A DNA stretch of 64,000 nt, from the NCBI GenBank assembly GCA_964597675.1, contig CAZQYV010000001.1, positions 81,644 through 145,643 on the forward strand, given 5' to 3'. This document shows positions 3,753-61,430 of the stretch, one piece after another (position 1 is the first letter of the stretch; each line of letters starts with the position of its first letter). The position numbers and the translations under genes were made by a program. Below the pieces are notes generated by a model, which ran no database searches, was not told the DNA's origin, and worked only from the letters and a program-made list of their open reading frames with translations. This stretch comes from an uncultured Candidatus Saccharibacteria bacterium (GTDB lineage Bacteria; Patescibacteriota; Minisyncoccia; Phycocordibacterales; DATDWN01).

Positions 3753-5486
3753 ATGAAAAAATATATTCTGCGAGAAGATATTTCAGATGAAGTTAAAAAA
3801 ATATTTTCTTCATACCCGCCACTTGTGCAAAAGTTATTGTATGCTCGAGGTATTGATGACATACAAACTGCTGAAACATTTTTACATCCAAATTATGATA
3901 CCAATGTGCACGATCCACTGTTACTCAAGGATATGAGTAAAGCAGTTAATCGTATTGTTTCTGCAATAGAAGGAAACGAGGTGATCGTGATTTATAGTGA
4001 TTATGATGCCGACGGTATTCCTGGTGCAGTTGTACTCTCTGATTTTTTTAAAAAAATTGGATATGCAAATGTAATTACGTACATCCCCTTGAGAAATGAA
4101 GAAGGATTTGGGTTAAATCGTGAAGCAATTGATACTCTTGTTTCACAAGGAGCAACCCTATTAATAACCATAGATTGCGGCATTTCTGACGTTACTGAAG
4201 TGGAGCACGCGCTGTTACACGGCATGGATGTGATCATTACAGACCACCATCTTCCTGGAAAAGTTGTACCAAATGCCTACGCGATTATAAATCCAAAACA
4301 GATTGGATGTCAGTATCCAGAAAAGATGTTATGCGGGGCTGGAGTTATTTTCAAAGTTGTGCAGGCACTTGTACAACATGAAAAAATTTCATTTCCACAT
4401 GGTCAAGAAAAATGGTTACTTGATATGGTTGGCATAGCAACACTTTCAGACATGGTTCCACTTCGTGGGGAGAATCGAGTCTTTGCTCACTACGGAATCA
4501 AGGTGCTTCAAAAAAGTCCGCGTATTGGACTGACAAAATTATTTTCATTATTAAAAATTGATAAACGATATGTAACAGAAGATGATATCGCATTCATGAT
4601 TACACCGCGTATTAATGCCGCTTCACGAATGGGTATTCCGCGTGATGCATTTCAATTACTTTCAACGACGGATGAAGTGGAGGCCGGTGCGCTAGCAGAA
4701 CACTTGAATAATAAAAATGATGAACGAAAAGGTGTGGTGGGAAGTATGGTTCGTGAGATTAAAAAAAAGATTCACGAAAGAGACGAAGAAATGAAACATG
4801 TTTTAGTATTGGGAAATCCAGAATGGAAACCATCACTTCTTGGACTGGTCGCAAATAGTTTTTCTGATGAACATAACCGCCCTGTATTTTTATGGGGAAG
4901 AGAAGGAGTAAATGGTGAATCAATTATTAAAGGATCGTGTAGGTCTGGTAATGGTGTGTCTGTTGTTCTTTTGATGGAAAAAATAAAAGATGTATTTTTG
5001 GAATATGGTGGACACCATGGAGCCGGCGGTTTCTCTGTTTCTCACGAAAATATTCACACACTCGAACAAAAATTAAATGAAGCGTATATCGAATTACAAA
5101 AAGAAAAAATAAGCGAACCAGAAAATTTTGTTGATGCTCAATTACAACTAAGTGATGTTAACTGGAATACATACGACATGATACATACGTTTGCACCATT
5201 TGGTTTTGAAAATCCAAAGCCAATTTTTTTGTTTTCCAATGTTACTGTTTCAGCTGTGAAACTGTTTGGAAAAGAAAAAAATCATTTGGAAATTAAATTA
5301 CAAGATTCATCAATATCTAATTCAGAAAAAAATAAAGAGGTGACTGCTATTGCTTTTTTCTCTGATCCAACAAAATTTGAAGTGAAGATTGAGGCAGGAA
5401 GCGTGGTTAATTTGGTTGCAACATTAGAGAAATCAAATTTTCGAAATTTTCCAGAACTTCGTCTTCGTGTTGTTGATATATTTTAG
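3753..5486 (+). CDS. recJ: single-stranded-DNA-specific exonuclease RecJ (DHH family)
   Basis: DHH motif ITDHH, DHHA1-like C-terminal region, size 577 aa. Confidence 0.8.
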   Translation: MKKYILREDISDEVKKIFSSYPPLVQKLLYARGIDDIQTAETFLHPNYDTNVHDPLLLKDMSKAVNRIVSAIEGNEVIVIYSDYDADGIPGAVVLSDFFKKIGYANVITYIPLRNEEGFGLNREAIDTLVSQGATLLITIDCGISDVTEVEHALLHGMDVIITDHHLPGKVVPNAYAIINPKQIGCQYPEKMLCGAGVIFKVVQALVQHEKISFPHGQEKWLLDMVGIATLSDMVPLRGENRVFAHYGIKVLQKSPRIGLTKLFSLLKIDKRYVTEDDIAFMITPRINAASRMGIPRDAFQLLSTTDEVEAGALAEHLNNKNDERKGVVGSMVREIKKKIHERDEEMKHVLVLGNPEWKPSLLGLVANSFSDEHNRPVFLWGREGVNGESIIKGSCRSGNGVSVVLLMEKIKDVFLEYGGHHGAGGFSVSHENIHTLEQKLNEAYIELQKEKISEPENFVDAQLQLSDVNWNTYDMIHTFAPFGFENPKPIFLFSNVTVSAVKLFGKEKNHLEIKLQDSSISNSEKNKEVTAIAFFSDPTKFEVKIEAGSVVNLVATLEKSNFRNFPELRLRVVDIF

Positions 5487-5527
5487 TAAACTTTCATTTT
5501 TTCATTTTTTCAATTATTCTATAAGGT

Positions 5528-6205
5528 ATGATAACTATTTTTACAGATGGAGCAGCACGAGGAAATCCTGGTCCGGGAGGGTGGGGTGCGATTGTGGTTG
5601 GTGAGGATCTTGTTGTTGAAATGGGAGGAAGAGAAGACCACACAACCAATAACCGAATGGAGCTTACTGCTGTAATCAGGGCGCTTGAGGCCTACCCGCG
5701 TGAGTATGAAGCACAGATTTATACTGATTCTGCATATGTACTTTCTGGTAGTACTAGATGGGTACAAGGTTGGCAACATAATGATTGGAAAACATCCACG
5801 AAAGACGATGTATTAAATAGAGATTTATGGGAACAAATGGTAGAAGTTATGAAAGGGAAACGTCTAAATTGGCGATTAATCAAAGGTCACTCAGGTATTG
5901 CTCCAAATGAGAGATGCGATGTTATTGCTACATCATACGCTGATAAGGTACCAATCGTGTTATATCAAGGTTCAAAGGAACGATACGGAGTTAATACACA
6001 AGTTACCAGTTCTCTTGGGGTGGATACAAAAACTAAATCTAAAAGTAAAGCATATTCATACGTTAGTTCTATCGATGGTGTTGTGAACATACATAAGACA
6101 TGGGAAGAATGTAAGGCTCGTGTAGTTGGTGTTTCTGGTGCCCGACACAAAAAATCAACATCGCCCGAGGATGAAGATCATATTATCGAGGAGTTTAAAA
6201 AATAG
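5528..6205 (+). CDS. rnhA: ribonuclease HI with a C-terminal extension
   Basis: N-terminus IFTDGAARGNPGPGGWG, TNNRMEL, YTDS and KGHSG motifs of RNase H. Confidence 0.8.
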   Translation: MITIFTDGAARGNPGPGGWGAIVVGEDLVVEMGGREDHTTNNRMELTAVIRALEAYPREYEAQIYTDSAYVLSGSTRWVQGWQHNDWKTSTKDDVLNRDLWEQMVEVMKGKRLNWRLIKGHSGIAPNERCDVIATSYADKVPIVLYQGSKERYGVNTQVTSSLGVDTKTKSKSKAYSYVSSIDGVVNIHKTWEECKARVVGVSGARHKKSTSPEDEDHIIEEFKK

Positions 6206-27211: not shown

Positions 27212-27592
27212 ATGACAACAAAAGAAGCCACAAAAAAGGTTGTAACGAAAAAAGTCGCATCAAAGACGGCCGGAAAGTCCGACGTGATTTCTAAGTTGCG
27301 CATTCGTGTTCGGGCATACGAGTACAAGATCCTTGATCTGTCTGTAAAGCAGATCATTGATACTGCGCTCCGTTATGACGCTAAAATTGAAGGTCCTATA
27401 CCTCTACCAACAGAAATAAAGAAATATACTGTCAACCGATCATCATTTGTTTACAAAAATGCTCGAGAACAGTTCGAGATGCGTACTCACAAGCGAGTGA
27501 TTGATATATTGAATCCAAGTCCAAAAATCATGGAGGCACTGACGAATATGTCGTTACCTTCAGGAGTCAATATTGACGTGAAGATTATATAG
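27212..27592 (+). CDS. rpsJ: 30S ribosomal protein S10 with a Lys-rich N-terminal extension
   Basis: S10 core IRIRVRAYEYKILD...NIDVKI preceded by about 25 extra residues. Confidence 0.9.
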   Translation: MTTKEATKKVVTKKVASKTAGKSDVISKLRIRVRAYEYKILDLSVKQIIDTALRYDAKIEGPIPLPTEIKKYTVNRSSFVYKNAREQFEMRTHKRVIDILNPSPKIMEALTNMSLPSGVNIDVKII

Positions 27593-27635
27593 CGATACGA
27601 AGTAACGAATGGGTTACGAATTGCTACGAATAAAC

Positions 27636-27672
27636 AAAAAACCGCCCTGAGCTTGTCGAAGGGGCGGTTTTT
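27636..27672. terminator. rho-independent terminator after rpsJ (bidirectional)
   Basis: aaaaaccgccctgagcttgtcgaaggggcggtttttt. Confidence 0.7.
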
Positions 27673-27686
27673 TGTGGAGACATTAG

Positions 27687-27938
27687 TTACTCTGTTGTCT
27701 CTCGTAATCTACTATCAACATCATCTATCATTCTTTGAATCATTTGTTGTTCTCTTTGTACATCGGCTATTTCTCTTTTACCTTGCTCAGCAATGTCCAA
27801 GTCTGCACCGTACCTGGTTCTTATCGAATTCTCTTTGTTTATTAAAGCTTGAAGTTGATTTTCATACTTTGATCTTTCATCAAAAAGAACACTTCTTTCT
27901 GGTGTTTCAAAACTCATGTTTCCTGATTCCATTCCCAT
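27687..27938 (-). CDS. small coiled-coil hypothetical protein (83 aa)
   Basis: ORF convergent on the rpsJ terminator; charged, helical composition. Confidence 0.3.
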   Translation of the reverse strand: MGMESGNMSFETPERSVLFDERSKYENQLQALINKENSIRTRYGADLDIAEQGKREIADVQREQQMIQRMIDDVDSRLRETTE

Positions 27939-28040
27939 ATTTTTAAATTAGTTACTAATACTCATAATTATAGTGGGTGAGGGGAGGCAGGTCAATTATT
28001 CTTGTACTGTTAGACACCGAGTGTCTAACAGTATGGACAC

Positions 28041-28512
28041 TCTATTAGAATATCAAAAATTCTTATCCCTCGCTTTGCTCGGGATCTGCAAATTCTCATG
28101 CTTCGGACTACCTCAGCATCCGGAATTTTCATAGTCGGCGCCTTTGGCGCCTCGTTGAAAATTCGGACTTGACAAATGGGTGGGGGATAGATTATACTGG
28201 TACCAGTGGATGGGTAGAGGGGTCTGGAGGTAAGGTGTTGGCTCAGCCACCCTCCTCCAGACCGCCTGGTCCTCTCACTGTTCTTTCGTTTCTTGTCTGA
28301 TACTTTTGTATCAGATACCAGTCGCAGTCTCTCTTCGGAGGGGCTGTTGTTTTTTTTGTAATTTTTTCTTATCCCTCACTACGTTCGGATATTTGAAATT
28401 CTTATACTTCGGATTACCTCATCATCCGGAAATTCTTATCCATCGCTTCGCTCAGGATCCGGAATTTTCATAGTCGGCACCTTTGGCTCCTCGTTGAAAA
28501 TTCGGACTTGAA
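28041..28512. repeat. repeat-rich non-coding spacer: two copies of a 55 nt imperfect-hairpin unit (28122-28175, 28458-28512) plus tandem 30-35 nt sub-repeats, and a central hairpin cluster ending in a T-run (28210-28340)
   Basis: ccggaattttcatagtcggcgcctttggcgcctcgttgaaaattcggacttga occurs twice; aaattcttatcc...gatc-like units occur three or more times. Confidence 0.6.
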
Positions 28513-28605
28513 ATAAAAAAGGATATCTGCTAGTATAGCCACATTGCGTATTAGAGGCCTTCCCGCCTCTTTGTCGTTCAAAACATTTATATACAATTTC
28601 GTATT

Positions 28606-29220
28606 ATGAAATACCTTCTCGGAACAAAACAAAATATGACCCAAATCTTTGATGATGCGGGTGTCGTACATCCAGTGACTGTCATCAAGACAAGTCCTTT
28701 GGTTGTGACACAGGTCAAAAATGTTGAAAAGGACGGCTATACTGCAGTTCAAGTCGGATACGGTACTCGCCGAGCAAAAAACATAAACAAACCAGAAACT
28801 GGTCAAATGAAAGGTGGTTCATATGCACATCTCAAAGAGTTTCGAGTTGAAGGTGCTCCTACATTTGCTATCGGAGACACCATTGATCTTTCTACATTTT
28901 CTGCAGGGGACACAGTTACCGTTTCATCTATTTCAAAAGGAAAGGGCTTTCAAGGTGTGGTCAAGCGACATGGATTCCACGGTGGCCCCCGATCACACGG
29001 ACAAAAGCATTCAGAACGAGAGCCAGGTTCTATTGGAGGTGCAGGCCGTGATGGAGGACGTGTTGCCAAGGGCAAGCGTATGGCAGGCCGTATGGGAAGT
29101 GACCGCATCACTACAAAAAACCTTACTATTGTTGCAATTAACCCAGAGAACCAAGAAATATTTATTCGAGGAGCAATTGCAGGCCGACGAGGAACGTTAG
29201 TCGAGATCAATGCCGAGTAA
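28606..29220 (+). CDS. rplC: 50S ribosomal protein L3
   Basis: L3 family sequence. Confidence 0.95.
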   Translation: MKYLLGTKQNMTQIFDDAGVVHPVTVIKTSPLVVTQVKNVEKDGYTAVQVGYGTRRAKNINKPETGQMKGGSYAHLKEFRVEGAPTFAIGDTIDLSTFSAGDTVTVSSISKGKGFQGVVKRHGFHGGPRSHGQKHSEREPGSIGGAGRDGGRVAKGKRMAGRMGSDRITTKNLTIVAINPENQEIFIRGAIAGRRGTLVEINAE

Positions 29221-30370: not shown

Positions 30371-31213
30371 ATGAAACGATATAATCCTACAAGTCCATCA
30401 CGTCGACAATTGTCATCTATTGAATATGGCAAAATTTTGACTGCATCAGAACCAGAGAAATCTTTGACAAAAGGTTTCAAACGAGCAGTTGGCCGAAATC
30501 ATCATGGAAAAGTTACCACACGACACAAAGGTGGTGGTCACAAGCGACTCTACCGAGAAATAGATTTTACATACAATAAGATTGACGTACCATACACAAT
30601 CGCAACAGTCGAGTACGATCCAAACCGATCTGGTTTCATTGGTCTTGCTCAATACAAAGATGGTGAAAAGCGATACGTTCTTTTACCACAATCAGTCAAA
30701 GTAGGGGATATTTGTGTTACATCAGAAAATGCAGAGATTAAAACTGGTAACCGACTACCTCTCAAAAATATTACTGTTGGTACGTTTGTATACAATGTAG
30801 AAATAAAGCCCCAAGGTGGTGCAAAGATCGCTCGATCTGCAGGGAACTTTGTCGAGGTTATTGCAAAGGATGCTGGATATGTTGATCTAAAAATGCCTTC
30901 ATCAGAAGTACGAAAGGTAAAGGAAACAGCATGGGCATCTATTGGTGAGGTATCAAATGAGGAAAATCGTTTGGTCAATCTCGGCAAGGCAGGACGCTCA
31001 CGATGGCTAGGTATCCGACCAACAGTCCGAGGTACAGCACAGAACCCAGTTGACCACCCACACGGAGGAGGTGAAGGACGACAGGGACGAGGACGCCGAC
31101 GAGCAATTTCAGTCTACGGCAAGCCAACAGGAAAGGGTCAGAAGACACGAACTCCAAAGAAATACTCAAACAAATTCATCGTTTCTCGCCGAAAGGTTGG
31201 AAAGAGAAAGTAA
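30371..31213 (+). CDS. rplB: 50S ribosomal protein L2
   Basis: L2 motifs GGGHKR and PTVRGTAQNPVDHPHGGGEG. Confidence 0.95.
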   Translation: MKRYNPTSPSRRQLSSIEYGKILTASEPEKSLTKGFKRAVGRNHHGKVTTRHKGGGHKRLYREIDFTYNKIDVPYTIATVEYDPNRSGFIGLAQYKDGEKRYVLLPQSVKVGDICVTSENAEIKTGNRLPLKNITVGTFVYNVEIKPQGGAKIARSAGNFVEVIAKDAGYVDLKMPSSEVRKVKETAWASIGEVSNEENRLVNLGKAGRSRWLGIRPTVRGTAQNPVDHPHGGGEGRQGRGRRRAISVYGKPTGKGQKTRTPKKYSNKFIVSRRKVGKRK

Positions 31214-31220
31214 AATCAAA

Positions 31221-31250
31221 AAAACCGCTCTACAAGGCGGTTTTTTGGTG
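31221..31250 (+). terminator. rho-independent terminator after rplB
   Basis: aaaaaaccgctctacaaggcggtttttt. Confidence 0.65.
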
Positions 31251-31276
31251 TTCGTATAATATATTATGGCATGTAC

Positions 31277-31305
31277 TTGACAAATAATCAATAATAGTAT
31301 ATACT
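31277..31305 (+). promoter_or_regulatory. sigma70-like promoter (TTGACA, 17 nt spacer, TATACT)
   Basis: ttgacaaataatcaataatagtatatact. Confidence 0.55.
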
Positions 31306-31311
31306 TATATA

Positions 31312-31626
31312 CAGGTGTTTTGAGTAGTCAAACATTCCGCCCTCCGAGTAAGGAGGCGGTTGCCGGAAAGACCACACCGGCGAAAAATGTGGTGACTCTC
31401 GGATATCGTATGAATATCCGAGTTGCACAAAGCCCTGTGCGTAAAATAAGGTGACTCTTTTTAATGGAGAGAGAATGTTGTGAATAAATTGCGTCATTAA
31501 ATAATAACCCTCACCCCGACGCAGGTGAGGTAGCGGTATCTGGGCCTCGAAATCTAGATACAACGTCCGGTCGTGTAAATACATCTGGACACCTTGGCCC
31601 GACATCTGTCCGGGCCTTTTTCTTTG
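31312..31626 (+). ncRNA. unclassified structured ncRNA of about 315 nt with its own promoter and terminator
   Basis: No ORF; at least 6 hairpins including a 9 bp stem ctcggatat/atatccgag, an H-type pseudoknot candidate (gccgg..CCACA..ccggc..TGTGG), and a terminal hairpin ggcccgacatctgtccgggcc plus T-run. Confidence 0.45.
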
Positions 31627-31632
31627 TCAAAA

Positions 31633-31660
31633 TTGACATATTGACCAAATAGTGTATAAT
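31633..31660 (+). promoter_or_regulatory. sigma70-like promoter (TTGACA, 16 nt spacer, TATAAT)
   Basis: ttgacatattgaccaaatagtgtataat followed by an aggagg RBS. Confidence 0.6.
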
Positions 31661-31677
31661 AGTGTTAGGAGGCCAGA

Positions 31678-31947
31678 GTGACTTGTAAAATTCTGGATGA
31701 ACCAACACTCGCGGAGTCGTTGGTAGAGAATAAACTCCCCACTATCAAGATCGGAGATAGAGGGGAAAGTGATTTGAGTCAGGCAGAGAAATTTGAACGT
31801 CTCTGCAATTTCCTTGATAAGGGAGAGGATGTGGTTGTTATGTTGTTCGGCGACACATGGTATCGCGGTGTCGTCGAGCAGGCTGCCCTGGCACGGGGGT
31901 ATGATGTACTCCATGCCAGGAGTGCCACCGAGTTGGTGGCGGCATGA
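31678..31947 (+). CDS. small GC-rich hypothetical protein (89 aa, GTG start)
   Basis: aggagg RBS 8 nt upstream; own promoter and terminator; GC about 50% versus about 36% in flanking DNA. Confidence 0.5.
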   Translation: MTCKILDEPTLAESLVENKLPTIKIGDRGESDLSQAEKFERLCNFLDKGEDVVVMLFGDTWYRGVVEQAALARGYDVLHARSATELVAA

Positions 31948-31952
31948 CGGTT

Positions 31953-31986
31953 GGCCGGGGAGAGATCCCCGGCCACTTTTCTTTTT
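31953..31986 (+). terminator. rho-independent terminator
   Basis: ggccggggagagatccccggcc followed by a T-run. Confidence 0.65.
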
Positions 31987-32023
31987 AGGAGAAAGTTGTA
32001 TTGTGTAGAAGGAGGTTAGAATT

Positions 32024-32302
32024 ATGGTTCAACACAATGATGCTGAGGATGATCCAAAAATCACTATTGAAATTGATTGTTTTGACATCCTATTAAATGC
32101 TTTTATTGTCGCAGTTGGTATGGTAATCCTTACATTTGCAATCAATTCTGTCTCGTGGTTACACACAATTGTTTTCAAAGGTAGAGATGCTAACTATGGG
32201 GCGATATTTAGTCTTTGTTTTCTAACTATTGCTCTGACCCAGTATTTAGCTGAATGGAATGTGATTCAAGAGATAAAGAAGCAACATGGTCGTGGCAAAT
32301 AG
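32024..32302 (+). CDS. small two-TM membrane protein (92 aa)
   Basis: gaaggagg RBS; two hydrophobic segments; hairpin terminator overlapping its 3' end. Confidence 0.5.
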   Translation: MVQHNDAEDDPKITIEIDCFDILLNAFIVAVGMVILTFAINSVSWLHTIVFKGRDANYGAIFSLCFLTIALTQYLAEWNVIQEIKKQHGRGK

Positions 32303-32340
32303 CCACGGCCTTTTATTTTGCCTTGAGGGGCACGATCATT

Positions 32341-32369
32341 TGACATTACTCCTGATTTTGTATAGTATA
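32341..32369 (+). promoter_or_regulatory. sigma70-like promoter for rpsS and the downstream S10-operon genes (TTGACA, 17 nt spacer, TAGTAT)
   Basis: ttgacattactcctgattttgtatagtat. Confidence 0.55.
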
Positions 32370-32461
32370 GAGCCCAAGTTCTAAGAGCATGACTCTTAAA
32401 CAATTTTGTGTGCGGTATGCAATATACCTCTACAAAGAGTGTTTTTATTTTTGAATATTTC

Positions 32462-32803
32462 ATGACACGATCATCAAAAAAAGGCCCATATGTAGACGAA
32501 CGACTCCTCAAGAAGATTGAGGGCAAAAAGCCGATAGAAACCGGTGTTATTAAGACGTGGTCACGTGCATGCGTTATTTCTCCAGAAATGGTTGGGTTCA
32601 ACTTTGGTGTTCACAATGGAAAAACTCATCTTGAAGTATTGGTTTCAGAGGACATGGTAGGTCACCGACTGGGCGAGTTTTCTCCAACAAAGAAATTCAT
32701 CAAACACGGTGGTAAAATGCAAAAAGACCTCGAGCAGAAAAAGAAAGAGTCCGAAATTTCTGCTGCAAAAGCTGCAAAGACAACTACTGAAACAAAGAAA
32801 TAA
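32462..32803 (+). CDS. rpsS: 30S ribosomal protein S19 with a Lys-rich C-terminal tail
   Basis: Start at [12 protein letters not shown]; the S19 core matches; the ORF track starts 54 nt too early. Confidence 0.9.
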
Positions 32804-36286: not shown

Positions 36287-36868
36287 ATGTTTGATATTAA
36301 ACTGTTTGTCACTTTGTTGGTATTTTGGGCGGTGATTATGCTGCCAAGATTCATCCGTAACCATTTCGACGATCGTCGCAGGATCAGACGAATGGCTCGG
36401 GAAATAGAGCTTATTGATCAGGCAAAAAAAATCGGTCCGATCCTCATTCAAAATATTGAAGGGGGAATTGTGGCTTTCTGTACTGCTCGTGATTTTTATC
36501 AAGCAGAGAAGATGGCACGGGGTACTGAGGTTTGGAAGCGTGTGAGGGTGGAAGTAATCCCAACCTTTACATTTGCATCAAATGAAGGTGTGAGGGTCGG
36601 TGCTCACACTGGAGTTATGGCAGATGCGGAACTAATCCTAGAAAGCATGATCAGGCGGTCAATCCTAATCTGCAAAGGAGAGCAAATTCCGAGAAAAGTA
36701 TTCAAATACCTCATTCACAAAAATGAGAGACTTCATGTCCCATTCTTGCCAGCGACCGATGATATAGATCGGTTCAAGCGAGAATTAAGGGATTACGGTC
36801 TAACTACGGTCGAACAAGCCGAAAATAACTTTCTGAAGGAGTGCTTGAATATTATTTGGAAGGGGTGA
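36287..36868 (+). CDS. GC-rich hypothetical protein (193 aa, N-terminal TM) inserted between rplE and rpsN with its own promoter and terminator
   Basis: Terminator gagccccgaaaggggttttt before it and acccggttgcagtggtgcaaccgggt after it; RBS ggaagga. Confidence 0.5.
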   Translation: MFDIKLFVTLLVFWAVIMLPRFIRNHFDDRRRIRRMAREIELIDQAKKIGPILIQNIEGGIVAFCTARDFYQAEKMARGTEVWKRVRVEVIPTFTFASNEGVRVGAHTGVMADAELILESMIRRSILICKGEQIPRKVFKYLIHKNERLHVPFLPATDDIDRFKRELRDYGLTTVEQAENNFLKECLNIIWKG

Positions 36869-46107: not shown

Positions 46108-46136
46108 TTGACATGCAACCTATTTAGGTGTATAAT
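46108..46136 (+). promoter_or_regulatory. sigma70-like promoter (TTGACA, 17 nt spacer, TATAAT)
   Basis: ttgacatgcaacctatttaggtgtataat. Confidence 0.6.
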
Positions 46137-46149
46137 AGAATAGGAGGGT

Positions 46150-46299
46150 ATGATGACAACAGGCCTTATTCTTGGCATTTTAGTCATAGTGGTTACCATT
46201 ATGACTATGGTGGTCGTTATAAGATTGTGCATGAATTACGCTAGGCGTGAAAAGGCGACAAAGGAAGCATTCAAAGAGAGGTTTCCTCCGTCCGAGTAG
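46150..46299 (+). CDS. 49-aa single-TM hydrophobic peptide with its own promoter, RBS and terminator
   Basis: aggaggg RBS; MMTTGLILGILVIVVTIMTMVVVIRLCMNYARREK...; terminator cacccccgacgagtagtcgggggtg plus T-run at 46303-46335. Confidence 0.5.
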   Translation: MMTTGLILGILVIVVTIMTMVVVIRLCMNYARREKATKEAFKERFPPSE

Positions 46300-46611
46300 A
46301 CCCACCCCCGACGAGTAGTCGGGGGTGTTCGTTTTTACACATTACTTATTTCATACCCGCAAGTGTTTCTCTATTATATCGAGATGTATAATATTGGTAG
46401 GATTGTTTCATATTTTCTATCTAACAATTTTTTAGGGAGTCTCATATTTACATATCCCGATGAGCATTGTCGCAAGACAGAGTTCACTCAGATATGTGTG
46501 CGGACACCCACCTGGCATTATGCTAGGGGAATATGAACACAATCCTATTAAAGAACCCCGTGTCGTACGGGATTTTTTAATTTTTTCTTTCGCTTTTATC
46601 ATTCTCACGGT

Positions 46612-51519: not shown

Positions 51520-51775
51520 AAAGAACAAAAGCTAAAATTTATTATTTGAAAGATAAGAAAAATACACTTACATAAAAAAAGACCCCCAATGAAGACGAGC
51601 TTCACAAGGGTTCTTTTCGTAGTGATATTAAAAGTATATCAAACTGTTCGTGAATGTCAAATAAATATTTTTCGAGTACAAAAAAGCCCTATTTCTAGGT
51701 GTTGTTTAGGGGTAGTGGCGGCAGTTCGCCCTTTGCCTTAAAATTTTCTCGTCAGAAAATTTAATATTGTGGGAG

Positions 51776-56067: not shown

Positions 56068-56141
56068 GCGCGTGTAGCTCAGTTGGTTAGAGCTCGGAGC
56101 TTATACCTCCGTGGCCGGGGGTTCGAGTCCCTCCACGCGCA
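56068..56141 (+). tRNA. tRNA-Ile with anticodon UAU (reads AUA)
   Basis: Cloverleaf: acceptor GCGCGTG/CACGCGC, D stem GCTC/GAGC, anticodon stem CGGAG/CTCCG with loop CTTATAC, T arm GGGGG-TTCGAGT-CCCTC. Confidence 0.7.
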
Positions 56142-56145
56142 CAAG

Positions 56146-60699: not shown

Positions 60700-61430
60700 T
60701 TTTGAGTAGGAGAGAGCGAGAATTTTTGCCTCGAAATTTTCAATTTCGTCAAAAGGAGCGAGAGTTTCTCACTCGACTTAAAAATTTCTCGTCAGAAATT
60801 TTTAGTCTGTGCACTGACTCGCGTCCTGCTTTTGCTAAAGCAGGAATCGCTCCGTCGTTCGAATCTCGACACAATCTGCTAACAGCAGATTGTTCTCTCT
60901 CCGTAAACAAAAAGCGCCTTTCGGGATTTTGTTGGCGGAGAGAGCGAGAGTTTCTCCTACAATTTTTTCTCGTCGCCACTCGAAAAAATTCTAGGCGCCA
61001 GATGTGCGACAAACTCTGCTAAGTTTGTAGACCGCACATCTGTTCGAATCTCGCGCGCATAGCTTCGCTTTGCTTCTCTCCGCAAAAAGAAAACCCGTTT
61101 CGGGGTCCTTTTTGCGGAGAGAGCGAGATTCGAACTCGCGGTTCCAATTAAGGAACGACGGTTTAGTAAACCGTTGATTTAAACCACTCATCCATCTCTC
61201 CATATACTCGCTATGCTCGAATGGAGCTGCTTTCGCAGATCGATGGATTCGTGGTCGGTGATTACACCGGCTCGGTGTGAAGTAGTTCACACCATCGCCC
61301 ATCTCATCCATCTCTCTGTATACTCACCTGAACATTAGGAATATAGCATTTTTCTGTGGATTGATAAAGTTTTTTTGCGGAGACGGGGAGAGTTTCTGCC
61401 TCGAAATTTTCAATTCCGTCAAATTGAAAA
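60700..61430. repeat. tRNA-fragment repeat region: three copies of a tRNA 3'-end core (gcggagagagcgaga and gcggagacggggaga classes), each followed by gtttctgcctcgaaattttcaatt[c/t]cgtcaaa-type flanks, plus a partial duplicate of the 5' end of the 61115-61201 tRNA
   Basis: Copies at 60708-60752, 60945-60990, 61377-61424 and 61290-61318. Confidence 0.6.
61115..61201 (-). tRNA. type II (long variable arm) Ser-like tRNA with apparent anticodon ACU
   Basis: Acceptor GGAGAGA/TCTCTCC, G73 discriminator, anticodon stem ACGGT/ACCGT with loop TTACTAA, variable arm GTTCC/GGAAC, T arm GCGAG-TTCGAAT-CTCGC. Confidence 0.55.

Follow-up and report, generated by a model that had tools for sequence, protein, structure and literature searches.

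A candidate structured RNA gene and two allelically diverse orphan small-protein genes between rplB and rpsS of an uncultured Candidatus Saccharibacteria bacterium

In the 64 000-nucleotide (nt) stretch of contig CAZQYV010000001.1 of an uncultured Candidatus Saccharibacteria bacterium that was analysed (hereafter the window, with positions counted from its first letter), the genes for ribosomal proteins L2 (rplB) and S19 (rpsS) are separated by approximately 1.25 kb, positions 31214–32461 being precisely the gap between them. The gap contains the rplB terminator, a promoter (P1) followed by a sequence predicted to specify a structured non-coding RNA with its own terminator, a second promoter (P2) followed by two small open reading frames (ORFs) of 89 and 92 codons (ORF89 and ORF92), each with a terminator, and a third promoter with the 5′ leader of rpsS (table 1). 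A preliminary description, made by reading the DNA without database searches, had listed these features, and each of them was recovered where it had been placed: the terminator of rplB, the hairpin-rich RNA running from promoter to terminator, the second consensus promoter with a GC-rich 89-residue protein behind it, and the 92-residue protein with two transmembrane (TM) segments, with the reservation that its hydrophobic segments are judged by inspection. The identical arrangement is present in independent ENA, NCBI, JGI and Logan assemblies and is therefore not an assembly artefact.

Table 1. Features of the rplB–rpsS region. RBS, ribosome-binding site; aa, amino acid; promoter scores are given as matches to the 12 consensus positions.
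Feature	Position	Strand	Basis
rplB (L2)	30371–31213	+	ORF; Pfam Ribosomal_L2_N/C on the L001 gene, 99.6% aa match
rplB intrinsic terminator, hairpin AAAAAACCGC...GCGGTTTTTT then T-run	31219–31246	bidirectional	
Promoter P1 of the RNA, TTGACA-17-TATACT, 11/12	31277–31305	+	promoter scan
Structured non-coding RNA of about 315 nt; a 5′/3′ helix encloses about 10 hairpins	31312–31626	+	fold and strain comparison
Hairpin H2 (GCCGG/CCGGC)	31362–31381	+	sequence and consensus helix
20-nt direct repeat, copy 1, GCGAAAAATGTGGTGACTCT	31380–31399	+	repeat search
20-nt direct repeat, copy 2, GCGTAAAATAAGGTGACTCT, 85% identical, 59 nt downstream	31439–31458	+	repeat search
Variable hairpin H5, stem kept as sequence changes	31455–31473	+	strain alignment, helix 8
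RNA intrinsic terminator, 8 bp with one bulge (31596–31616), then UUUUUCUUU	31596–31626	+	RNAalifold
Promoter P2, TTGACA-16-TATAAT, 12/12	31633–31660	+	promoter scan
ORF89, small soluble orphan, GTG start, 89 codons; RBS AGGAGG 31667–31672	31678–31947	+	ORF, allele comparison
Hypervariable island in ORF89, 44–56% nt identity versus 95–100% in flanks	31715–31925	+	strain alignment
ORF89 terminator, hairpin 31952–31975, 10-bp stem with 8 GC pairs, T-run	31952–31985	+	terminator scan
ORF92, small orphan, two hydrophobic segments (inspection only); RBS AAGGAGG 32009–32015	32024–32302	+	ORF
ORF92 terminator, hairpin 32288–32310	32288–32319	+	terminator and repeat scans
rpsS promoter, TTGACA-17-TAGTAT, 10/12	32340–32368	+	clade-wide conservation
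rpsS 5′ leader: hairpin AAGAG/CUCUU, GGUAU/AUACC, weak hairpin and U-run before start codon	32376–32461	+	strain and species conservation
rpsS (S19)	32462–32803	+	Pfam PF00203, E 5e-32

Promoter sites that match at least 11 of the 12 consensus positions number only 10 on both strands of the 64 kb, and two of them lie inside the gap, correctly placed before the RNA and before ORF89 (Poisson p approx. 0.02 at the density of the window itself). Both hexamers of P2 are unchanged across all strain variants, P1 is the same in strain variant L001, and the −35 context of P1, like the 3′ half of the rplB terminator and the promoter context downstream of it, is kept at locus L004 of the closest species. 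Terminator-like sites in the surrounding 10 kb are also in excess, 21 being found versus 7.7 ± 2.5 in shuffled sequences. Repeats flanking the insert, considered as possible traces of a mobile element, are short, AT-rich and partly within the rpsS coding sequence, and were judged to be due to chance.

The RNA has a calculated minimum free energy of −111 kcal/mol on the plus strand, with a z-score of −4.7 and none of 100 shuffled sequences folding equally well. Its terminator hairpin was missed by a simple scanner owing to the bulge, but was recovered by RNAalifold as helix 12 of the consensus structure, all pairs of which are retained in the 5–6 sequences that cover it. The loop of H2 (ACCACA) is complementary to UGUGGU at 31388–31393, forming a pseudoknot candidate whose bases are invariant in all strains. 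The two imperfect 20-nt repeats lie within the RNA, and the element GGTGACTCT occurs in three copies in the window, versus 0.21 expected.

The RNA could be compared among the window, L001 and L002 at full length and with partial sequences from L086, L085 and L087. The first 106 nt are invariant among these strain variants, and most changes fall in H5 (helix 8), in which four wobble changes accompany a double compensatory one and which, in the L001 and L086 alleles, is capped by a GAAA tetraloop. With H5 and the U-tail set aside, divergence from L001 is approximately 3%, while the synonymous divergence (dS) of the flanking genes for L2, S19 and L22 is 0.09–0.18. Of the 12 base pairs that vary, 11 stay standard or wobble pairs when read on the plus strand and only one would do so on the minus strand; no change of the A-C type is seen among them. 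All 11 one-sided or compensated changes are of the plus-strand wobble type, which has a chance of approximately 0.5^11 if transitions are unconstrained and of approximately 0.01 if H5 is counted as a single event. Furthermore, 99.5% of the alignment cells are paired, versus 36–48% when the partners are slid. This pattern of retained pairs is the signature that would be expected of a structurally constrained plus-strand RNA. The preliminary description had proposed a comparison with related genomes for covarying pairs; among the strain variants the comparison favoured the plus-strand structure, although formal covariation is weak because the RNA sequences are too similar. With its own promoter, its own terminator, a structure maintained on one strand and no conserved ORF, the unit has at the sequence level the attributes of an independent small RNA (sRNA) gene, and 31312–31626 is most probably a true gene for a non-coding RNA, kept under purifying selection.

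Relatives of this RNA were sought in several ways. A scan of the whole window with the covariance models of Rfam 15 (4227 families) at gathering thresholds (GA) returned no match in 31214–32461 to RNase P RNA, signal recognition particle (SRP) RNA, 6S RNA, transfer-messenger RNA (tmRNA), riboswitches, ribosomal protein leaders, ribozymes or the OLE, GOLLD, ROOL and HEARO RNAs, and nothing relevant appeared over the insert at E ≤ 10. The best sub-threshold matches are terminator look-alikes (Acido-1, 26 bits versus a GA of 50; RNAI, 23 versus 47), while the tmRNA encoded elsewhere in the window reached 78 bits in the same scan. The earlier statement, reached by eye, that the RNA is not recognizable as RNase P RNA, tmRNA, SRP RNA or 6S RNA therefore held. 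Searches of the insert with nhmmer and blastn against 83 loci retrieved only same-species copies and the common rpsS leader; with a covariance model built on the 5′ domain (R1), 88 sources yielded copies from the same species alone and 80 viral loci yielded none; and the three methods combined detected no homologue at a distance of up to 4 kb from rplB in any of 80 related species. Likewise, no second copy of the RNA lies elsewhere in the window, exact patterns of RNA segments had no match in viral and metagenome collections, and blastn of the insert against a phage collection gave no match. A loose two-motif pattern yielded over 120 chance matches, none of which was confirmed by the covariance model.

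At the closest species locus, L004, the corresponding slot (5421–5710) shares the promoter context and has a near-consensus promoter, but is filled by an unrelated 254-nt structured sequence that ends in a terminator (z-score −4.1). The slot as such is thus conserved between the two species, its content not. The L004 slot sequence may itself encode a 27-residue peptide behind AAGGAGG, and downstream of it, at 5712–5885, there is a perfect-looking long inverted repeat of approximately 35 bp around approximately 100 nt.

ORF89 begins with GTG in the window and with ATG in its other alleles. Its GC content is 51% and its GC content at third codon positions (GC3) 52%, versus 41% GC for the window, and the GC3 values of the alleles (0.43–0.60) lie above those of the neighbouring genes (0.29–0.38). 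Four alleles were distinguished, namely A (the window), B (L002; P0003), C (L001, L003 and L084) and D (L085–L087; P0006). Their products are mutually only 33–74% identical in strains whose flanks are 90–100% identical, and all four retain a frame of 87–89 codons, the RBS and conserved ends, with ratios of non-synonymous to synonymous divergence (dN/dS) of 0.28–0.79. An AlphaFold 2 model built on a two-sequence alignment (predicted local distance difference test score, 80) gives a generic three-layer, four-stranded alpha/beta sandwich. Its topology resembles that of P-loop/polynucleotide kinases, which have a kinase core of full size and a Walker A motif, GxxxxGK[ST], behind the first strand. 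The Walker A motif is missing in ORF89, which is therefore not counted among these kinases, and the resemblance was not used to assign a function. The only match in PADLOC-DB 2.0 was to a fragment of GajB (E 0.049).

ORF92 occurs in exact copies in four contigs, and a second allele encodes a 93-residue protein that is 54% identical (dN/dS 0.26); PADLOC-DB 2.0 gave no match. For both proteins Pfam, PADLOC, PHROGs and the PDB sequences returned nothing specific, a word search of 5.8 billion proteins found only their own alleles, and HMMER over 1.84 billion representatives added only Tudor-like repeat proteins, which were treated as repeat-inflated false positives. Viral loci are without relatives of either. 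In these searches, then, ORF89 and ORF92 are without a relative outside their own species cluster.

The dS values between alleles of ORF89 and ORF92 amount to 0.5–1.6, versus 0.09–0.2 in the flanking genes for L2, S19 and L22, with dN/dS of 0.26–0.79 overall. From such values it follows that the two ORFs are, by the measure of codon substitution, genuine genes under purifying selection, and that their alleles greatly predate the strains in which they occur; the same pattern excludes hypermutation in place. Since the promoter, the RBSs, the terminators and the ORF89–ORF92 spacer are near-identical around such diverged coding sequences, replacement of cassettes by recombination is pointed to. 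Assemblies break in or near the RNA–ORF89 region (L003, L084 and L085–L087, contigs that are 0.7–1.9 kb long or begin in the 3′ half of the RNA), as coexisting alleles in one sample would cause. The allelic diversity of two small genes within an invariant regulatory scaffold is the most unusual feature of the locus.

The position of the insert is far less unusual. The nearest relatives by L2 sequence (66–88% identity) belong to metagenome-assembled genomes that carry the labels Zambryskibacteria, Paceibacterota or Parcubacteria, by which the window is assigned to the candidate phyla radiation and, within it, to a Zambryskibacteria-like clade of Paceibacterota. In the 50 relatives in which both genes were located, rplB and rpsS lie between 35 nt and 3.4 kb apart, and approximately 30 further relatives have no rpsS in up to 4 kb downstream of rplB, some of their contigs being short. 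Of the 50, 47 have a promoter of the form TTGAC(A/T)-N16/17-TAnTAT placed 60–175 nt upstream of rpsS, even where the gap is only 56–150 nt, and the cargo between the two genes is unrelated from one relative to another (orphan ORFs, a PemK toxin, a patatin, an aspartyl protease). Because of the presence of the rpsS promoter throughout these relatives and of a leader conserved among the closer ones, the rplB|rpsS junction is best read as an ordinary operon boundary and cargo hotspot in the clade, and the promoter as ancestral rather than as the repair of an insertion. The third promoter of the earlier description, said to restart rpsS, thus stands, and the view of the insert as an exceptional intrusion into the S10 operon is not supported by the relatives. 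The location not being anomalous for the clade, the chief reason for which the insert had seemed extraordinary is removed.

Some of the cargo of the relatives recurs. Genes for a family of approximately 100-residue proteins with the signature (D/E)xNP(V/I)...AWEYY stand immediately before the rpsS promoter in L005, L007, L010, L013, L014, L016, L022 and L031; L005 (5041–7042) has four tandem paralogues, and the one member tested gave no Pfam match. ORF89 was compared with this family and is unrelated to it. In L031, L044, L047, L057, L059, L060 and L080 a block that by inspection resembles rplJ–rplL, together with genes for membrane proteins of approximately 185 and 230 residues, lies between rplB and rpsS, which indicates larger rearrangements at the junction.

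The rpsS leader does not differ between any of the strain variants (100% identity), is conserved in L004–L022, and has a hairpin of the AAGAG/CUCUU type that covaries across related species. An ACCAC/GUGGU hairpin with a U-run behind it shares part of its 5′ arm with the GGUAU/AUACC helix, so that the layout resembles, on paper, an antiterminator/terminator attenuator for the block beginning rpsS–rplV–rpsC. RNAalifold retrieved no hairpin other than the 5-bp one preceding the U-run, and Rfam returned no family for the leader in eight related loci. Autoregulatory leaders of ribosomal protein genes are structured 5′ regions to which a protein encoded behind them binds; in the E. coli S10 leader, attenuation of a ribosomal protein operon is regulated by L4. 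The present leader is like such ribosomal protein leaders in being a conserved, structured 5′ region with a hairpin and U-run directly upstream of ribosomal protein genes, but it precedes rpsS rather than rpsJ and has no sequence or Rfam similarity to the E. coli element. A segment of the RNA (31443–31463) is complementary to the leader (32431–32451) at 16 of 21 AT-rich positions, and the leader never varies.

Taken together, the explanation that we favour, with a probability of roughly 0.55, is that the junction is an operon boundary that offers accessory cassettes a landing pad, here occupied by a stand-alone sRNA gene and by an ORF89–ORF92 unit whose coding parts are swapped between strains. 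Transcription would start at P1 and stop at the RNA's own terminator to yield a stable, structured product that may act in trans. Binding of a protein would be likelier than pairing through a short seed, a candidate site being the twice-repeated AAAAU-NN-GGUGACUCU element. P2 would drive ORF89 and then ORF92, and the terminator approximately 40 nt before ORF92 probably attenuates transcription, so that only a fraction of the transcripts would reach the second gene; ORF92 would probably be expressed at a lower level, by read-through, because there is no room for a promoter of its own behind the ORF89 terminator. The alleles may be exchanged by homologous recombination in the shared scaffold and kept by frequency-dependent selection, as would fit strain-specific interactions with phages, hosts or competitors.

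The anatomy of the locus, the conservation of the RNA structure, the coding status of the ORFs, the divergence of their alleles, the clade-wide promoter and the hotspot are observed in the sequences themselves. Several points weigh against this reading. The protein-binding role of the RNA and the attenuation by the internal terminator are guesses. Changes on both sides are confined to a single pair of the RNA, and covariation is not significant in the shuffle control (84/500); the sequences that served to test the consensus structure are also those from which it was built, and all of the comparative evidence comes from one species-level cluster with four ORF89 alleles, two ORF92 alleles and at most four informative RNAs. 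When trans targets were sought with RNAduplex in 75 translation-initiation regions, the predicted duplexes were long and without physical meaning, and the local genes were not outliers among them. Finally, three ORF89 alleles with mutual identities of 33–59% share one and the same ORF92, and the products of the two genes may accordingly not interact.

Among the alternatives, the one advanced in the preliminary description takes the RNA, ORF89 and ORF92 as a single toxin–antitoxin, regulatory or defence module. Stated for toxin–antitoxin, abortive infection or defence, it would make ORF92 a membrane-damaging effector kept low by the internal terminator, ORF89 a variable sensor or neutralizer, and the RNA an antitoxin or co-factor. 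The three parts are indeed linked and co-oriented in every sufficiently long contig, in the order RNA gene, terminator and protein genes, with the effector-like two-TM protein last and behind a terminator; the deeply diverged alleles and their atypical GC3 would suit an arms-race locus, and a PemK toxin and a patatin occupy the same hotspot in relatives. We nevertheless consider it doubtful, since homology gave it no support (Pfam, PADLOC, PHROGs, PDB sequences and fold searches), the RNA has neither a repeat array nor complementarity to the mRNAs of ORF89 and ORF92, a full-consensus promoter stands between it and the proteins, the sharing of one ORF92 among three ORF89 alleles argues against a tight cognate pair, and L004 has a different RNA and neither ORF. 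The deep allelic divergence of both proteins would also fit the pattern typical of conflict loci, and a version that goes further, an undescribed, RNA-containing and reverse transcriptase-free conflict system of the candidate phyla radiation residing in the rplB|rpsS hotspot, appears unlikely. In such a system sensing or specificity would fall to the variable ORF89, and ORF92 would be a membrane effector held back by the internal terminator. The RNA would serve as scaffold or antitoxin, and cassettes would be exchanged via the conserved promoter and terminator frames.

The remaining alternatives concern the RNA itself. It lies directly upstream of ORF89 in the same orientation, with a terminator approximately 60 nt before the gene, and might therefore be a cis-acting leader, i.e. 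a riboswitch or attenuator with a conditional terminator, of the ORF89–ORF92 operon. That is quite improbable because a perfect promoter, kept in all strains, separates the RNA from ORF89; moreover, no alternative antiterminator pairing emerged on inspection, no riboswitch or leader family matched at E ≤ 10, and the RNA is conserved while the genes downstream are replaced. A very divergent housekeeping RNA (RNase P RNA, 6S or SRP RNA), escaping the Rfam models in this phylum, would agree with a length near that of RNase P RNA, the strong promoter, the high conservation within the species and the fact that Rfam finds none of these three RNAs elsewhere in the 64 kb, and is nonetheless very improbable: none of the families responds at E ≤ 10 where the tmRNA is readily detected, the universal motifs of RNase P were not seen by eye, and related species, in which an RNA of this kind should be recognizable at such distance, lack it within 4 kb of rplB, the slot of the closest one holding an unrelated RNA. 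Hardly credible, lastly, is that 31312–31626 is not an RNA gene at all but protein-coding or a decaying spacer with chance promoter-like sites. A 105-codon ATG ORF on the minus strand and a 44-codon ORF on the plus strand do overlap it, but in L001 a 1-nt indel shifts the frame of the former and a C-to-U change, which retains a G-U pair, cuts the latter to 33 codons, so that the region is unlikely to be coding. The substitutions keep pairing on the plus strand, conservation outside H5 is greater than at synonymous sites, and the minus-strand ORF has no family match in Pfam, PADLOC or PHROGs.

The RNA is like lineage-restricted bacterial sRNA genes with a sigma-70 promoter and intrinsic terminator of their own, among them large orphan structured RNAs known from comparative screens, in being an autonomous promoter-to-terminator unit with conserved hairpins, structure-preserving substitutions and no coding capacity, but it falls in no described family and is known from a single species-level cluster; typical base-pairing sRNAs are also smaller and less structured than an RNA of this length with approximately 10 helices. 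In type III toxin–antitoxin systems (ToxIN, CptIN and TenpIN) an RNA antitoxin made of tandem repeats, which are processed by the endoribonuclease toxin, is followed by a terminator and the toxin gene. The order RNA, terminator and proteins on one strand and the presence of a repeated element in the RNA are reminiscent of them, but the repeats are two and imperfect rather than a tandem array (Tandem Repeats Finder), an independent promoter precedes the proteins, and neither Pfam nor PADLOC detected a ToxN, AbiEii or CptN-like protein in ORF89 or ORF92, so that the locus does not belong to this type. Type I systems pair a small hydrophobic toxin, usually under 60 residues, with an antisense or complementary RNA that binds the toxin mRNA; ORF92 has 92 residues, the RNA matches neither mRNA and there is no convergent promoter over ORF92.

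In diversity-generating retroelements a template repeat is near-identical to a variable region, differs from it specifically at adenines and lies near a reverse transcriptase gene. Here the window contains no second copy of the variable region, the differences between alleles involve every type of base as well as indels, and there is no reverse transcriptase among the ribosomal protein neighbours. In retrons, the msr–msd RNA is immediately followed by a reverse transcriptase gene, whereas here the downstream genes are two orphans without such a domain. Hypervariable allelic cassettes within conserved flanks, under balancing selection, are found at immunity, pherotype and specificity loci. The present locus is like them in its near-identical flanks, its coding dS above 0.5, its dN/dS below 1 and the assembly breaks; it is unlike them in that the proteins are orphans, no toxin, modification enzyme or signalling partner is nearby, and the cassette sits between ribosomal protein genes. 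TIGR-Tas systems have at least five units of alternating 8–12-nt repeats and approximately 9-nt spacers, or arrays of box C/D stem-loops, together with a Tas protein carrying a Nop domain (PMC12045711). At the present locus no periodic array is found, neither ORF89 nor ORF92 has a Nop domain, and the neighbours are ribosomal protein genes. The locus thus lacks what defines type I and type III toxin–antitoxin systems, diversity-generating retroelements, retrons and TIGR-Tas systems.

A few other elements of the window were noted in passing. A second insert of approximately 1 kb (27593–28605) separates rpsJ (27212–27592, Pfam S10) from rplC (which starts at 28606); it contains an orphan 83-codon ORF on the minus strand (27687–27938) behind an 11/12 promoter and a 61-nt element present twice with 95% identity (28112–28172 and 28451–28511). 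Each copy ends in a −35 box, and the rplC promoter region thus appears to have been duplicated. Between the copies there is a 158-nt promoter-to-terminator RNA (28199–28356; z-score −6.2) with no Rfam match. A 193-codon ORF with no Pfam match (36287–36868) lies between rplE and rpsH, in roughly the usual place of rpsN. A further cassette (46108–46335) combines a 12/12 promoter, AGGAGG, an orphan 49-codon ORF with a single TM segment (46150–46299) and a GC-rich terminator, and is separated from the next gene by approximately 270 nt of non-coding DNA. At 51575–51660 on the minus strand an 11/12 promoter is followed by a sequence of approximately 55 nt that ends in a hairpin and U-run, possibly a very small RNA. 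ARAGORN predicted a tRNA-Ser with the unusual anticodon ACT (61114–61201, minus strand) and a tRNA-Ile with the anticodon TAT (56068–56142), and Rfam confirms both as tRNAs.

On the sequence evidence, the locus may be regarded as a candidate for a new, narrowly distributed RNA family together with two orphan small-protein families, and not as a new kind of system. Bacteria belonging to the candidate phyla radiation have tiny genomes and, to our knowledge, almost no experimentally known regulatory RNAs, so that the RNA offers a concrete target for metatranscriptomics and for the definition of a new RNA family. Annotation pipelines would miss both that in this clade a conserved promoter and leader cut the S10 string of genes at rplB|rpsS, the cut acting as a hotspot for accessory genes, and that old alleles reside there in an invariant scaffold, which suggests that cassettes are swapped in this uncultured symbiont and that selection is frequency-dependent. 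Were the parts to work together, they would represent a small conflict module of a new kind; otherwise the locus would be a tidy example of lineage-specific cargo.

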